From the IMG/VR virus record IMGVR_UViG_3300028610_001024, positions 13,729 to 77,728 of that record: a stretch of 64,000 bases of DNA. One strand, written 5' to 3'. This stretch comes from a virus. This document shows, piece after piece, positions 2,320-53,358 of the stretch. Both the position numbers and the translations under genes were made by a program. Positions within the stretch are counted from its first letter, which is position 1. Every line of letters starts with the position of its first letter. The notes beneath the pieces are model-generated. The model ran no database searches. It was not told where the DNA came from and saw nothing but the letters and a program-made list of their open reading frames with translations.

Positions 2320-2575
2320 AACCTACTTTCTGATATGTGATCCAAAGTCTGGTCTAGTGATACGTCGAGCCCGCCAACCCGCCAACATTACTGAGTCACA
2401 CTTAGTATCTCTTCATGTAGACAAAAGGTTATGGAAATCTTACCGGGCGGGTGAACCCGTAAACTGGACGGAGCTACCGCTAGTTGCTCAGGACTTATGG
2501 AATCGACGTAGACGCTAGCTGCTATCGGCGGCGGACGAGCCGAGTACCAGACCTGGTCAGCCAAAACTATCACTA

Positions 2576-2621
2576 TCCAGAATTCTGAATCCAAAATCTT
2601 GAATACATCCAACTTCTTGAA
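2576..2621. promoter_or_regulatory. Putative upstream activator sequence: three TYCA-N6-TGVA boxes
   Basis: TCCAGAATTCTGAA, TCCAAAATCTTGAA, TCCAACTTCTTGAA; same arrangement at 6446-6490. Confidence 0.6.
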
Positions 2622-2716
2622 TGTAGGTAAATACATATCAGCATCAGATCTATGGGGTAGAGTACATATATGCCCCATATTTACTCAATCCATGCTGTAG
2701 TACCCTCATAGATTGT

Positions 2717-2733
2717 CTGGCATGGGCCTTGCA
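2717..2733 (+). promoter_or_regulatory. Sigma-54 (-24/-12) promoter
   Basis: CTGGCATGGGCCTTGCA fits YTGGCAY-N4/5-TTGCW with GG-N10-GC; intergenic, upstream of ORF 2787. Confidence 0.75.
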
Positions 2734-2786: not shown

Positions 2787-2999
2787 ATGACAACATACGA
2801 AGCATACGTTACCGGTTACAACTTCCTCCCTGAATTGTCTGCTTTCCTGAAGAATCAAACAATCAAGGCGCGAATCCAAACTCTACTAGGCGAGGATGAT
2901 ATCCTCCCTATCAACAATGTTCAAGCCGCCGAGGAGGTCCTTGAATCCGGTAAGGGTCTAGAGGCTTATGAGTTGGCACGGAGTCTCTATAATGCTTAA
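2787..2999 (+). CDS. Hypothetical early protein
   Basis: First ORF after sigma-54 site; C-rich codons. Confidence 0.6.
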   Translation: MTTYEAYVTGYNFLPELSAFLKNQTIKARIQTLLGEDDILPINNVQAAEEVLESGKGLEAYELARSLYNA

Positions 3000-5904: not shown

Positions 5905-6378
5905 ATGAAAACCACTAAAACCTTCAACCCTTCAATTGAGCAAACCATTCCCAACTTTTTCCCTGACATTAAACAACGCAAGCTTGCCTATACCATACTC
6001 AAGGTTCTCAACATCATCCCCAATCGTAAACTAATATTTGAAAAGGAACCCAACTGTAGAGGTAAATGTCCTGTCAGATTATACCTTATCAAAGATCTCA
6101 AAAAGGTACAATCACACCTTACCCAAAGCCAAACCATTACTCAAATCCCAAAAGGCTACACCGATGTTCATACACTAGAACGAAAGTACGACCTACCTAA
6201 TAGAACTATCTACCTGATATTCAAAACGGTTGGACTTGAATCAAATCAAATGTATAAACCTGAAGGACTAGGTACAGGGAGGAAACTGTTTAAGGTTAAG
6301 GATACAGAGTATGTAATGAAGTGGATTGTGAAGTCACGGGAACGATTCAGTGATCGAATATCCAACAGAGAGAGCTAG
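5905..6378 (+). CDS. Putative DNA-binding protein with two repeated wHTH-like units; paralog of 8461-8919
   Basis: Shared KxAYT, RG..xLY, P(K/D)G..D, VGLE, EYV motifs with 8461-8919. Confidence 0.55.
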   Translation: MKTTKTFNPSIEQTIPNFFPDIKQRKLAYTILKVLNIIPNRKLIFEKEPNCRGKCPVRLYLIKDLKKVQSHLTQSQTITQIPKGYTDVHTLERKYDLPNRTIYLIFKTVGLESNQMYKPEGLGTGRKLFKVKDTEYVMKWIVKSRERFSDRISNRES

Positions 6379-6384
6379 TTGAAT

Positions 6385-6401
6385 TTGGCACGATTCTTGC
6401 A
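6385..6401 (+). promoter_or_regulatory. Sigma-54 promoter motif
   Basis: TTGGCACGATTCTTGCA, a consensus match, intergenic. Confidence 0.7.
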
Positions 6402-6445
6402 GGCTACCCTCTAACCTTACCCAACTCAACTCTACCAACCCTCGA

Positions 6446-6490
6446 TCCAAATTCCTGGATTCAAAATTCTGCATACTCCAAGGAATTGAA
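6446..6490. promoter_or_regulatory. Putative upstream activator sequence: three TYCA-N6-TGVA boxes
   Basis: TCCAAATTCCTGGA, TTCAAAATTCTGCA, TCCAAGGAATTGAA; starts 140 bp upstream of the 6586 promoter. Confidence 0.6.
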
Positions 6491-6585
6491 GTTAGGTAAG
6501 TCTATAGGATCATAGAGAGTATGTAGCCCAAAGCATATATGTCGTGGATTTGCTCAATCCATGCTACTCCCCACTGAGGATTGAG

Positions 6586-6602
6586 TTGGCATGGACCTTG
6601 CT
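6586..6602 (+). promoter_or_regulatory. Sigma-54 (-24/-12) promoter
   Basis: TTGGCATGGACCTTGCT; upstream region homologous to that of the 2717 promoter. Confidence 0.75.
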
Positions 6603-6653: not shown

Positions 6654-6908
6654 ATGACCAAGGTCAAGCAAGCCAAACGCGCCGCCCTCCAAACTAAAGT
6701 CCTCAAGGCCTTCCGTAAGATCACAATCATTGAGCTTCTCGACGGTCCCGGGAAAACGGTCACATGTATGGACCTAGTCACCTTGGATATCTGCCAGACA
6801 CACGAACAGGCCATAGAGTTAATGGACGAGATGTGGGAAGCCCAGCAAGTCTACACAGTGAACGGGTATGGAACGAGCGCACAAGATCACGACTTCGCAA
6901 GCTGCTAG
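6654..6908 (+). CDS. Hypothetical early protein
   Basis: GAGG SD; first ORF after sigma-54 promoter. Confidence 0.6.
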   Translation: MTKVKQAKRAALQTKVLKAFRKITIIELLDGPGKTVTCMDLVTLDICQTHEQAIELMDEMWEAQQVYTVNGYGTSAQDHDFASC

Positions 6909-9669: not shown

Positions 9670-10034
9670 AGTGTAGTCGATGATTGTCCGGTGCTTCGCC
9701 CTCTGAGAAAGTCGATGAGTGTGGTACAACAGGGATACATAGTGCAATCAACGGTCGATGGAGTAACCCACTTGTCTCGTAGGTGTTACTGGTTCCCCTC
9801 TAAATTGGAGGGTACATGGGTTCACGATAGCGTCTCACCTCGACAGACTGTATAACCTGGGAAATAAAGCCAACCGACTTCTGCCGCGCTACGTGGGACC
9901 CAGAGAACGGCAACTGCAAGGCTGGACCGTGGCACCCTTGGCCACCGTTGATTCTGGAGACCAAAAAAGTAGCAGAAAATGAGTCGTCCTCAATAAAGGA
10001 CATTATCGTCCCCTTACGGTGACACTTCTACACT
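9670..10034 (+). ncRNA. Candidate ~360-nt structured non-coding RNA (family unknown; strand inferred from context)
   Basis: Visibly GC-richer intergenic segment with at least six nested helices and end-to-end pairing. Confidence 0.6.
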
Positions 10035-10127: not shown

Positions 10128-10144
10128 TTGGCACAGCGTTTGCA
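10128..10144 (+). promoter_or_regulatory. Sigma-54 promoter upstream of the NYN operon
   Basis: TTGGCACAGCGTTTGCA, GG-N10-GC. Confidence 0.7.
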
Positions 10145-10422
10145 TGTACATTTTCTAGTGTGGACACTAAACCAATAACTCACAATTAAAGGGCTTTTTT
10201 ATGACCAAAGAAACTTGCTACAATATGGGACATTGTGTTCCTTTGTGCGGCGTCCGTACAGTAAAGCTGACAGCTGATAAGAAAAAAACGACTTGCCCTA
10301 ACTGTCTGAATCTACTACTTACTTATCCCAAGGAGCCTACTATCGAACCTTAACCCCTTTACTATTAACCCCTCCCCCCCCCCTAATCTAACGCCTCTAC
10401 TCTTAAAAGGATAACCCCTTCT

Positions 10423-11334
10423 ATGTCCAACTCCACCTCTATTTTCGTCGATACCAGTAACGCCTACCACAATGGTGCAAATAATCTTCGTTATGATGAG
10501 CTACTCCGTTTTGCTCAACGTGATGGACGTAAGGTACAGCGCTATACAGCTTACTGCACCTATGACTCAGATAAAGATGACGGATCGTCTGAAGGTAATC
10601 TTTATGCTGAGGGCCTGGAGAAGTTCTGGGCTAGTCTAAGCGGATTTGGATATAAAGTCCATAAGGAGTACGTTAAGTGGCAAGGAAACGGTGGTAGTCG
10701 TAGACCAAAAGCTAATGTAGATATTCGTATGACAGTTGACATGCTTACGCAAACAGCTTCCGACACCATTTTACTTGTAACTGGGGACGGTGATTTTATC
10801 CCTTTAGTTGAAGCTCTACAGCTAAGAGGTATTCGAGTAGAAGTGATGAGCTTTCTCAATTCCTCTTCTGCTCTACAGGAATGTGCTGATTATCACATTA
10901 ACGGAGCACTCCTCCCCGGGGTGATTCCTATTCAACAACCTGTCAATGCTGAAGTTGCAGATGAAGACTCTCATAAACCTGTCTACTTCAACCACGGCGA
11001 ACCTGGCTCAACTCTAACCGGACAAATATACTACTTTAAACAGGAGAATAATTTTGGATTTATCCGTTATTTACCCCTGGGTGAGTATAGTAATCTTCAC
11101 GTTACAAGTACTGAGGATCCTATAACGTCCTTCAAAACTGTTCATGTTCACGGTAGCAAGCTTTTACCTAGAGATAGATACCCCTCAAATACAGTCTGGA
11201 AATTTGACCTAAAGAGTAGTGAGGTTAAAAAAGGGCAACTCACAGCTGTAAATCTTCGACCTGCGTTGACACCTAAAAATACTAAACCCCCTCATAACTC
11301 TACTCGTCCACAACAATCACCCGATAAAGGGTAA
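10423..11334 (+). CDS. NYN-domain (LabA/DUF88, PIN-like) ribonuclease with C-terminal cold-shock/OB domain
   Basis: IFVDTSN, KANVDIRMTVDM, LVTGDGDFIPL, GIRVEV motifs; C-terminal FKQENNFGFI...VHVH. Confidence 0.9.
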   Translation: MSNSTSIFVDTSNAYHNGANNLRYDELLRFAQRDGRKVQRYTAYCTYDSDKDDGSSEGNLYAEGLEKFWASLSGFGYKVHKEYVKWQGNGGSRRPKANVDIRMTVDMLTQTASDTILLVTGDGDFIPLVEALQLRGIRVEVMSFLNSSSALQECADYHINGALLPGVIPIQQPVNAEVADEDSHKPVYFNHGEPGSTLTGQIYYFKQENNFGFIRYLPLGEYSNLHVTSTEDPITSFKTVHVHGSKLLPRDRYPSNTVWKFDLKSSEVKKGQLTAVNLRPALTPKNTKPPHNSTRPQQSPDKG

Positions 11335-24322: not shown

Positions 24323-24970
24323 ATGAGAAAAACTTTTTTAACCTACTTGATAGGGATTATAACTGTAGCTACTACAGCATCTGCACATGTACCTCTATTT
24401 GATATACTGCCTCTACCCATTACACCAGCTGAGTTAGCTGTGTTACCCTGTGGTAGTGGGTTTATATTAAATGAATTTGAGTGGCGGGTGGACTACGTAG
24501 CAGAAACAATGTATAATTGCTATGATAATAGCGCAGTGCAAGATGGTTCTGGTTATGGGTGGTATGCTATTGGTGAGGGGGGAGTTGGGGTTGGTACTCC
24601 ATTTACTTCTAGTAGAGTAGTTAGAGTTGACTCCTCTGGAAATCTTGTAACAGAGGATATTGAAATGGTTGGGTCTGCCTTAAATGTTCCAAGTGTGTTT
24701 GTATTCCAGTTGGGAGGATTGAATGCATTTACTCTTCAATTTGGCGACCCGTCCGTTTTAGTAGGAAGCTTTCAAGTTGCTGGGGATCTATTTTCTAGCA
24801 AGTCCTGTATTATTTTGGTAGGGGGTACTACGTGTAATTTGGGATTACATGAGGTAGCACCCACAGGATTGACTGGATATACTTATACTGATAAAACAGG
24901 ATTACAGGCCTACTGTGTATTCTTAGATAGTGAGTGGAAAGTAATTATAGGTGACGGGACTTGTGAATAA
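24323..24970 (+). CDS. Secreted protein with Sec signal peptide (moron-like)
   Basis: AGGAG SD; MRKTFLTYLIGIITVATTASA-H signal peptide; several Cys. Confidence 0.65.
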   Translation: MRKTFLTYLIGIITVATTASAHVPLFDILPLPITPAELAVLPCGSGFILNEFEWRVDYVAETMYNCYDNSAVQDGSGYGWYAIGEGGVGVGTPFTSSRVVRVDSSGNLVTEDIEMVGSALNVPSVFVFQLGGLNAFTLQFGDPSVLVGSFQVAGDLFSSKSCIILVGGTTCNLGLHEVAPTGLTGYTYTDKTGLQAYCVFLDSEWKVIIGDGTCE

Positions 24971-51820: not shown

Positions 51821-51893
51821 GGGACCATAGCTCAGTGGTTAGAGCCACCGGCTCATAACCGGTTGGTCGACGGTTCAAGTCCGTCTGGTCCCA
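51821..51893 (+). tRNA. tRNA with CAT anticodon, most likely tRNA-Ile2 (lysidine, reads AUA); CCA not encoded
   Basis: Cloverleaf GGGACCA/TGGTCCC, AGCTCAGTGGTTAGAGC D-arm, CCGG-CTCATAA-CCGG, GGTTCAAGTCC; paired 1-72 so not initiator; resembles Ile2 tRNAs. Confidence 0.9.
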
Positions 51894-52958: not shown

Positions 52959-53277
52959 ACTAACAGTAATTTATACTGCAACATGCGAATGTAATGAGGA
53001 GCTTACTGAGATATTTGCTCAATTTGGAGAGTATGAATGTCCGAAGTGTAAGTGTAAAGCTACAGTTGAAGAAGTGCCTATTTTCGGTGTCGTTGGAGGA
53101 ACTCAACAAGTAAGATACGCTATAGGTCCTAACTCCAGGTACACTTATGGACCTTTTAATACGGTAGATAGATGTCTAGCTCTAACACCTAGTGATTTTA
53201 TATTTTCAGTAGACGAAAATGAGGACATCATCACTATTCTATATAAAGCTGTAGAAAATCAATGGATCAAATGCTAG
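52948..53277 (+). CDS. Zinc-ribbon protein
   Basis: CEC...CPKC; AAGGAG SD. Confidence 0.55.
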   Translation: MKSKLTVIYTATCECNEELTEIFAQFGEYECPKCKCKATVEEVPIFGVVGGTQQVRYAIGPNSRYTYGPFNTVDRCLALTPSDFIFSVDENEDIITILYKAVENQWIKC

Positions 53278-53358
53278 AGTGGCGGAATTGGTCTACGCGC
53301 TTGACTTAAAATCAAGTGGTTAATTACCGTGTGGGTTCGAGTCCCACCTCTAGCACCA
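53273..53358 (+). tRNA. tRNA-Leu (TAA anticodon)
   Basis: GCTAGAG/CTCTAGC acceptor, GGCGGAATTGGT D-loop, CTTGA-CTTAAAA-TCAAG, long variable arm, GGTTCGAGTCC, encoded CCA. Confidence 0.95.

Follow-up and report, generated by a model that had tools for sequence, protein, structure and literature searches.

The DNA studied here (the window, 64,000 nucleotides) comprises bases 13,729-77,728 of a complete 77,728-bp uncultured tailed-virus record with 144-bp terminal repeats and a GC content of 41%. The virus is a siphovirus, and its recognized products include terminase, portal, major head protein, a tape measure of 2,065 aa, family-A DNA polymerase, helicase, and amidase. All genes lie on the plus strand behind clear Shine-Dalgarno sites, according to a rough gene call made on that strand only. 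Two tRNA genes, for tRNA-Met (CAT) and tRNA-Leu (TAA), occupy window positions 51821-51893 and 53273-53358. No tyrosine integrase was found in this phage or in the relative described below, so a temperate life style is unsupported. DNA from the presumed early region found no match among 50,697 phage records in either near or distant searches, and neither did the capsid protein; the terminase matched only Microbacterium phages in such records, at 27-30% identity.

Predicted promoter cassettes in a region of small genes

The region from 10 to 24 kb of the genome consists of small genes, mostly of unknown function. Its largest intergenic gaps are a set of predicted promoter cassettes, which head every long gene run of the region (Table 1). 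An earlier note on this DNA described two of them, and all the elements it listed are present in both. The two are indeed intergenic copies of one design, but they are not the total: a third full copy lies outside the window, at genome positions 10163-10330. In the region behind the first cassette, the largest protein has 408 aa (genome 13,007-14,233, ending at window position 505); it belongs to no Pfam family, and matches end to end (E 9e-73) phrog_2319, a phage family of unknown function. In the operon of cassette 1, about 13 small genes follow the first, up to position 6378.

Table 1. Features of the two cassettes within the window and of the two single sigma-54 consensus sites (window coordinates; box scores are from the host-derived matrix).
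Feature	Sequence	Position	Strand	Remarks
Cassette 1, box 1	ATCCAGAATTCTGAAT	2575-2590	+	13.8 bits
Cassette 1, box 2	ATCCAAAATCTTGAAT	2589-2604	+	18.9 bits
Cassette 1, box 3	ATCCAACTTCTTGAAT	2607-2622	+	16.7 bits
Cassette 1, middle region		2624..2690	+	
Cassette 1, middle motif	TAGGTAA	2624-2630	+	
Cassette 1, middle motif	CATATATG	2665-2672	+	
Cassette 1, middle motif	ATTTACTCAATC	2679-2690	+	
Cassette 1, -24/-12 element	TGGCATGGGCCTTGCA	2718-2733	+	predicted transcription start ~2744
First gene behind cassette 1		2787..2999	+	70 aa, no known family
Single sigma-54 consensus site	TGGCACGATTCTTGCA	6386-6401	+	no box triplet upstream
Cassette 2, box 1	ATCCAAATTCCTGGAT	6445-6460	+	15.9 bits
Cassette 2, box 2	ATTCAAAATTCTGCAT	6459-6474	+	11.5 bits
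Cassette 2, box 3	CTCCAAGGAATTGAAG	6476-6491	+	13.0 bits
Cassette 2, middle region		6493..6559	+	
Cassette 2, middle motif	TAGGTAA	6493-6499	+	
Cassette 2, middle motif	CATATATG	6534-6541	+	
Cassette 2, middle motif	ATTTGCTCAATC	6548-6559	+	
Cassette 2, -24/-12 element	TGGCATGGACCTTGCT	6587-6602	+	predicted transcription start ~6613
First gene behind cassette 2		6654..6908	+	84 aa, no known family
Single sigma-54 consensus site	TGGCACAGCGTTTGCA	10129-10144	+	no box triplet upstream; no matrix match of at least 11 bits nearby

Each cassette opens with three boxes whose starts lie 14 and then 17-18 bp apart. These had been described as TYCA-N6-TGVA palindromes; the palindrome triplet stands, while the extent given for it does not, the true box being 16 bp long and reading ATYCAA-N4-TTGRAT. 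Box 1 lies 142 bp from the promoter in copy 1 and 141 bp in copy 2 when the count runs to the T of TGG; these values equal the 141 and 140 bp reported before, where counting ended on the base ahead of TGG. The boxes thus counted lie about 95-142 bp upstream of the promoter and not over it. Between boxes and promoter, TAGGTAA stands 93-94 bp before TGG, and CTCAATC stands exactly 34 bp before the -24 TGG and is followed by TGGCATGRRCCTTGCW in the three copies. Boxes, TAGGTAA, CTCAATC, and the -24/-12 element are kept in all three copies, and the spacers between these islands have diverged across the three, as had been claimed from two. The fixed shared architecture extends to the third copy for boxes, TAGGTAA, and promoter. 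CATATATG and the CAATC/GATTG inverted pair, the latter present in cassette 1, are missing from the third copy and are therefore probably inessential. Transcription starts were inferred by rule, with the C of the GC element taken as -12.

The window contains four instances of the strict pattern TGGCAY-N5-TTGCW, where 0.08 would be expected, always on the plus strand (starts 2718, 6386, 6587, and 10129), and a fifth consensus site lies at genome position 10,315, 3.4 kb upstream of the window. All five have the exact -24 GG/-12 GC element, with the consensus TGGCAC-N5-TTGCW and invariant spacing. They are intergenic and on the coding strand, with 55-70 nt from TTGC to the ATG and a Shine-Dalgarno sequence present. 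Single TYCA-N6-TGRA boxes number 11 in the window, against 5.1 expected, and five of the 11 fall inside the two cassettes. For the composite pattern, defined as two boxes, then 85-115 bp, then the promoter, the number expected by chance in the window is 0.00. Chance origin of the cassette elements is excluded. A sigma-70 reading of the same stretch was considered and rejected: sigma-70-like sites are unenriched (23 vs 19.3 expected), and the spacer from TTGGCA to TATATA would be only 10 bp. The assignment to sigma-54 made in the earlier note agrees with consensus, spacing, orientation, and distance to the gene start, and we have little doubt, judging from sequence, that the sigma-54 promoter is real. 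All five recognizable promoters of the phage are of this type. The replication and structural genes have no sigma-54 site ahead of them, and no promoter of any type was recognized for those genes.

Two of the five sites lack a box triplet upstream. The one at 6386 lies 8 bp past the stop of the gene at 5905-6378, and the cassette 2 boxes begin 44 bp downstream of it. This site and the one at 6587 may be tandem promoters flanking one enhancer, which would serve the 6386 site from downstream; such sharing is inferred. The genes behind the site at 10129 encode a 50-aa Cys-rich peptide (10201-10353) and then an NYN-domain ribonuclease-like protein (10423-11334; Pfam NYN, E 7e-26). A GC-richer gap, 9670-10034, lies upstream of this site.

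A distant relative and other viral contigs

Searching IMG/VR with the composite pattern found a second phage, IMGVR_UViG_3300015263_000597 (G001), of 77,687 bp and with a GC content of 52% vs 41%. It was also the sole match to the capsid protein in IMG/VR, by single query and by profile; one other close capsid homologue, 77% identical, sits on a 4.7-kb Logan contig. The two phages have 14 proteins in common, in the same order and at 26-43% identity. At the nucleotide level their only match is the tRNA-Met region, 66 nt at 85% identity.

G001 contains six strict sigma-54 sites, against 0 for the reversed control, and each has a box triplet about 100 bp upstream that agrees with those of the studied phage in motif and in its 14/17-18 spacing. 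When all nine cassettes, three from the studied phage and six from G001, are aligned on TGG, only the boxes and the promoter, TGGCAYG..cTTGCTAt.TAG, are conserved. The cassette 1 middle motifs (TAGGTAA, CATATATG, and ATTTACTCAATC) are absent from G001, and the pattern CTCAATC-N24-30-TGGCATGNNCCTTGC has no match in viral contigs. One G001 triplet, at about 24,630-24,677, sits between divergent sigma-54 sites at 24,534 (minus strand) and 24,753 (plus strand); from this arrangement the single triplet appears to serve both directions, which fits an orientation-independent enhancer.

Loss of the boxes in relatives had been named beforehand as an outcome that would refute an enhancer; the boxes are kept in G001. 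Boxes and promoter are the sole parts retained in a relative at about 30% protein identity, and the repeated palindromes lie 95-142 bp upstream in three plus six cassettes, preserved independently of their flanks. The reading of the boxes as an activator enhancer, proposed from the two copies in the window, gains from both this and the shared triplet. We adopt it with good confidence, although binding itself is inferred.

Sigma-54 consensus sites with TTCA/TCCA-N6-TGAA/TGGA boxes upstream were seen in two further viral records, IMGVR_UViG_3300031566_000112 and IMGVR_UViG_3300025605_000494, of which the stretches fetched are unrelated to the phage. The design, as far as such motifs can tell, may recur in other phage lineages. 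Two short contigs, Ga0209757_10018081 and IMGVR_UViG_3300003690_003536, carry eight to nine tandem ATCCAA-N4-TTGRAT boxes directly against sigma-54-like sites. Those sites are partly palindromic and repeated, and the number of boxes is far above that of any other locus.

Matching sites at bacterial promoters

A search of one genome per bacterial species with the composite pattern found at least 120 bacterial loci, mostly in Acidobacteriota. Among the matches listed, 58 of the 80 titled loci are labelled Acidobacteriota or one of its classes (Aminicenantes, Blastocatellia, Vicinamibacteria, and Thermoanaerobaculia). Eight "uncultured Eubacteriales" MAGs are also among the matches listed; because several of them have the same outer-membrane protein family downstream, they may be mislabelled. 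A sample of 301 Acidobacteriota genomes gave 25 matches in 16 genomes, and the reversed control gave 0.

Among the matches listed, 44 of 123 box-plus-promoter instances precede proteins of 900-1,190 aa that have CarboxypepD_reg and outer-membrane beta-barrel regions, which is the TonB-dependent-receptor type. Likewise among the matches listed, 30 of the 123 precede a GAF-PAS histidine kinase (~950 aa) directly followed by a regulator of REC-Sigma54_activat-HTH_8 architecture (~461 aa), which by its gene content looks like a self-regulated two-component operon. NCBIfam gives this regulator no specific name, AtoC and NtrC being the best matches, both below their cut-offs. The motif is not unique to one regulator, since similar box pairs adjoin other activators in some Bacillota (loci L012, L058, L077, and L086).

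The resemblance between host and phage sites reaches beyond what the search pattern imposes. The four box positions that it leaves free (1, 6, 11, and 16) are A, A, T, and T in host sites, as they are in the phage. The start of the nearest box lies 100-115 bp before TGG in hosts; the phage range is 110-119 bp. Applied to the phage, a matrix derived from host boxes gives 11 matches, nine of which are cassette boxes (11.5-18.9 bits), against a shuffled mean of 3.65; on G001, 14 of 16 matches are cassette boxes (shuffled mean 2.25). At host promoters there are as a rule two boxes, spaced by 19-20 bp, whereas phage cassettes always have three. Nevertheless, the three-box layout with 14+17/18 spacing is native to some host promoters, in genomes labelled Aminicenantes, where the phage-like 14+18 form occurs. 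A 14-spaced pair was found in 12 metagenome loci, and every one of them also has the three-box layout, mostly before proteins of ~1,020-1,090 aa, which we take to be receptor genes by size alone, without comparison with the receptor family.

The middle part of the cassette has no such counterpart. TAGGTAA, CTCAATC, and the ATGCTAC of G001 are unenriched in host promoters. An IHF consensus site occurs in 19 of 122 host promoters, against a shuffled mean of 1.5; in the phage cassettes checked by eye, no IHF consensus of the E. coli type was seen, and ATTTRCTCAATC stands at that position. Because the middle motifs (TAGGTAA and ATTTRCTCAATC; ATGCTAC in G001) are located where those host promoters carry their IHF site, they may be a site for a DNA-bending protein.

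The host was inferred from regulatory motif and GC content only. On that basis it probably belongs to Acidobacteriota, most likely to Aminicenantes. Candidate hosts carry rpoN. The Aminicenantes chromosome CP070825.1, with a GC content of about 40% in the parts retrieved, encodes at least 14 NtrC-family activators. There, the best orthologue of the boxed operon of kinase and regulator is preceded by a single box, ATTCAATTTTTTGGAT (20.6 bits; L147 2873-2888), 56 bp before the kinase start codon. There is one box only and no sigma-54 site at that operon, and the box may reflect autoregulation at another promoter type. The host's orthologue of the regulator in the boxed kinase-regulator operon is our candidate for the phage activator, a tentative identification that we would put somewhat below an even chance on the sequence evidence. 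A capsid profile run on 401 Acidobacteriota genomes gave one weak partial match. When 20 kb of the phage was searched at DNA level in 151 genomes from the same class as CP070825.1, no spacer-like match appeared; the only match, 48 nt at 81% identity, lies inside the NYN gene and is not a spacer.

A proposed mechanism and its alternatives

For promoter opening, sigma-54 holoenzyme strictly needs an activator ATPase of the AAA+ type. The sigma-54 interaction domain (PF00158) is absent from both phages, the whole genome having been covered for the studied phage, and the sigma-54 DNA-binding domain (PF04552) is absent from the studied phage. No GAFTGA-like motif occurs in any reading frame of either phage. 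A phage-encoded activator was considered and is unlikely, there being no PF00158, no GAFTGA, and no matching Walker motif. The activator is probably supplied by the host, since sigma-54 needs an ATPase activator and neither phage has one. The earlier note had drawn this inference from the window alone; it now rests on the whole phage genome, and on the same motif, spacing, and distance at sigma-54 promoters of Acidobacteriota chromosomes.

A classical enhancer-dependent sigma-54 promoter is glnAp2 of enteric bacteria, activated by NtrC; at norV, activated by NorR, three sites are needed. In NtrC-type systems, palindromic activator sites lie about 100-150 bp upstream and work in either orientation, and three dimer sites fit one hexamer. 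The present case resembles glnAp2/NtrC and norV/NorR in the -24 GG/-12 GC element with fixed spacing, in the tandem upstream palindromes, and, by inference, in an activator with receiver, AAA+, and Fis-type HTH domains. It differs from them in that the phage genome holds the sites and encodes none of the proteins. In promoter element, placement, and upstream boxes the cassette meets the sequence-level criteria of the NtrC/glnAp2-type class, with function, that is, binding and transcription, inferred. It also resembles the promoters of the receptor regulon of Acidobacteriota/Aminicenantes in box motif, box spacing, box-promoter distance, and promoter consensus; the differences are the usual two boxes and occasional IHF sites of the host promoters, as against three boxes and middle motifs of its own in the phage.

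In the usual description, a phage begins transcription from sigma-70 promoters or with a polymerase of its own. We found no description in the literature of the box motif ATYCAA-N4-TTGRAT with 14+18 spacing, nor of phage enhancers copied from a host regulon. The earlier remark that few phage examples are known agrees with the literature as far as we could consult it, in which only Pseudomonas phage YuA was named (PMC5053324, PMC10914365). In the portions available, phage use of sigma-54 is called "rare" but "not unprecedented", and YuA is cited there as having a strict requirement for host sigma-54 (PMC5053324); mapping of the transcription start confirmed one sigma-54-like promoter of YuA (PMC10914365), and YuA is described as having one sigma-54-like promoter region among sigma-70-like and phage-specific ones (PMC5053324, PMC10914365). 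The likeness to this Pseudomonas aeruginosa phage, as far as those excerpts go, lies in its being a siphovirus whose development depends on host sigma-54. In contrast to YuA, all five recognizable promoters here are of the sigma-54 type, and the parts of the YuA papers available to us describe no enhancer sites copied from a host regulon. With no DNA or capsid-protein match in the 50,697 phage records, the present phage is unrelated to the YuA/M6 type. Agrobacterium phage 7-7-1 was considered as another phage with rpoN promoters and set aside, its paper giving RpoD-type promoters only.

We think it quite likely that host sigma-54 polymerase and a host NtrC-family activator drive the phage operons, with the caveat that binding is inferred and there are no expression, start-site, or binding data. 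Host RNA polymerase with host sigma-54 would form a closed complex on TGGCAYG-N4-TTGCW. The three ATYCAA-N4-TTGRAT boxes, about 95-140 bp upstream, would be occupied by dimers of an NtrC-family activator of the host, with receiver, AAA+ ATPase, and Fis-type HTH domains; three dimers would then assemble as an active ring that reaches the polymerase by looping and uses ATP to open the promoter. The phage would contribute DNA sites only, copies of an enhancer used by a regulon of its host, which would belong to Acidobacteriota and probably to Aminicenantes. The copied regulon would be that of outer-membrane beta-barrel receptor genes of TonB-dependent-receptor type, which in other classes of the phylum would also hold the regulator's own kinase-regulator operon. 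Phage expression would in this way be tied to the signal read by the partner GAF-PAS sensor kinase. The content of the regulon, outer-membrane uptake receptors, suggests a nutrient or envelope cue, although the signal is inferred. That the operons are early is plausible from position and content, and their timing is likewise inferred, not shown.

The boxes could instead be operators for a DNA-binding protein of the phage itself, be it a repressor, an anti-activator, or an activator that went unrecognized, their likeness to host boxes then being coincidental or serving competition with the host regulator. Three tandem palindromes do resemble the tripartite operators of phages, most phage proteins are of unknown function, and a 260-aa protein common to both phages has a faint winged-helix (TrmB) match (E 0.0098, below the family cut-off). 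The box sequence has also been kept in two phages whose hosts, to judge by GC contents of 41% and 52%, are probably different. We nevertheless find operators improbable: sigma-54 needs an AAA+ activator, which neither phage has; the boxes lie about 95-140 bp upstream and not over the promoter; and the same motif, spacing (14+18 included), and promoter distance recur at host chromosomal promoters without phage genes nearby. We also give little credence to the possibility that the cassettes are host promoter DNA captured for accessory (moron-like) genes only, outside the core infection programme. They have been multiplied (three cassettes and two single sites here, six cassettes in G001), they stand at the head of each long gene run from 10 to 24 kb, they persist in both phages, whose proteins are otherwise only about 30% identical, and they have no nucleotide similarity to host DNA beyond short motifs. 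In favour of such a capture are the small size and unknown function of the downstream genes and the lack of a sigma-54 site before replication and structural genes.

It is very improbable, in our estimation, that TGGCAY-N5-TTGC is read by something other than host sigma-54, such as a sigma-like factor or a polymerase of the phage. The extra conserved bases after -12 in both phages (TTGCTAt.TAG) do go beyond the sigma-54 consensus. However, consensus and spacing are exact at five sites in one phage and six in the other, the enhancer boxes are the same as those of host sigma-54 promoters next to activator genes, and no transcribing polymerase or sigma gene was recognized among the phage proteins scanned.

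Under the preferred reading, host sigma-54 and a host activator acting on sites copied by the phage, a host switch protein probably decides when the phage gene blocks fire. The promoter is of a known kind in an unusual place, and it links an uncultured phage lineage to a two-component switch of the host in a way that can be tested. The cassette can be tested directly in a reporter because it is small and modular. One further conjecture, which we regard as unlikely, is that the phage receptor is itself an outer-membrane beta-barrel receptor of the copied regulon. If so, a cell that displays the receptor would already hold the active regulator, and one host signal would couple adsorption and promoter firing. 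Under this conjecture a sigma-54 start for its first genes would also free the phage to shut down sigma-70 transcription, and phages of Acidobacteriota would share the strategy across a whole lineage.

A whole phage lineage appears to leave the initiation of its gene blocks to a two-component switch of the host, whose DNA sites it has copied. If this is true, infection outcome would be linked to the host's nutritional or envelope state. It would also offer a sequence-only route for assigning hosts to uncultured phages, here among the hardly cultivated Aminicenantes/Acidobacteriota, and would point to an undescribed sigma-54 regulon of outer-membrane receptors in Acidobacteriota.
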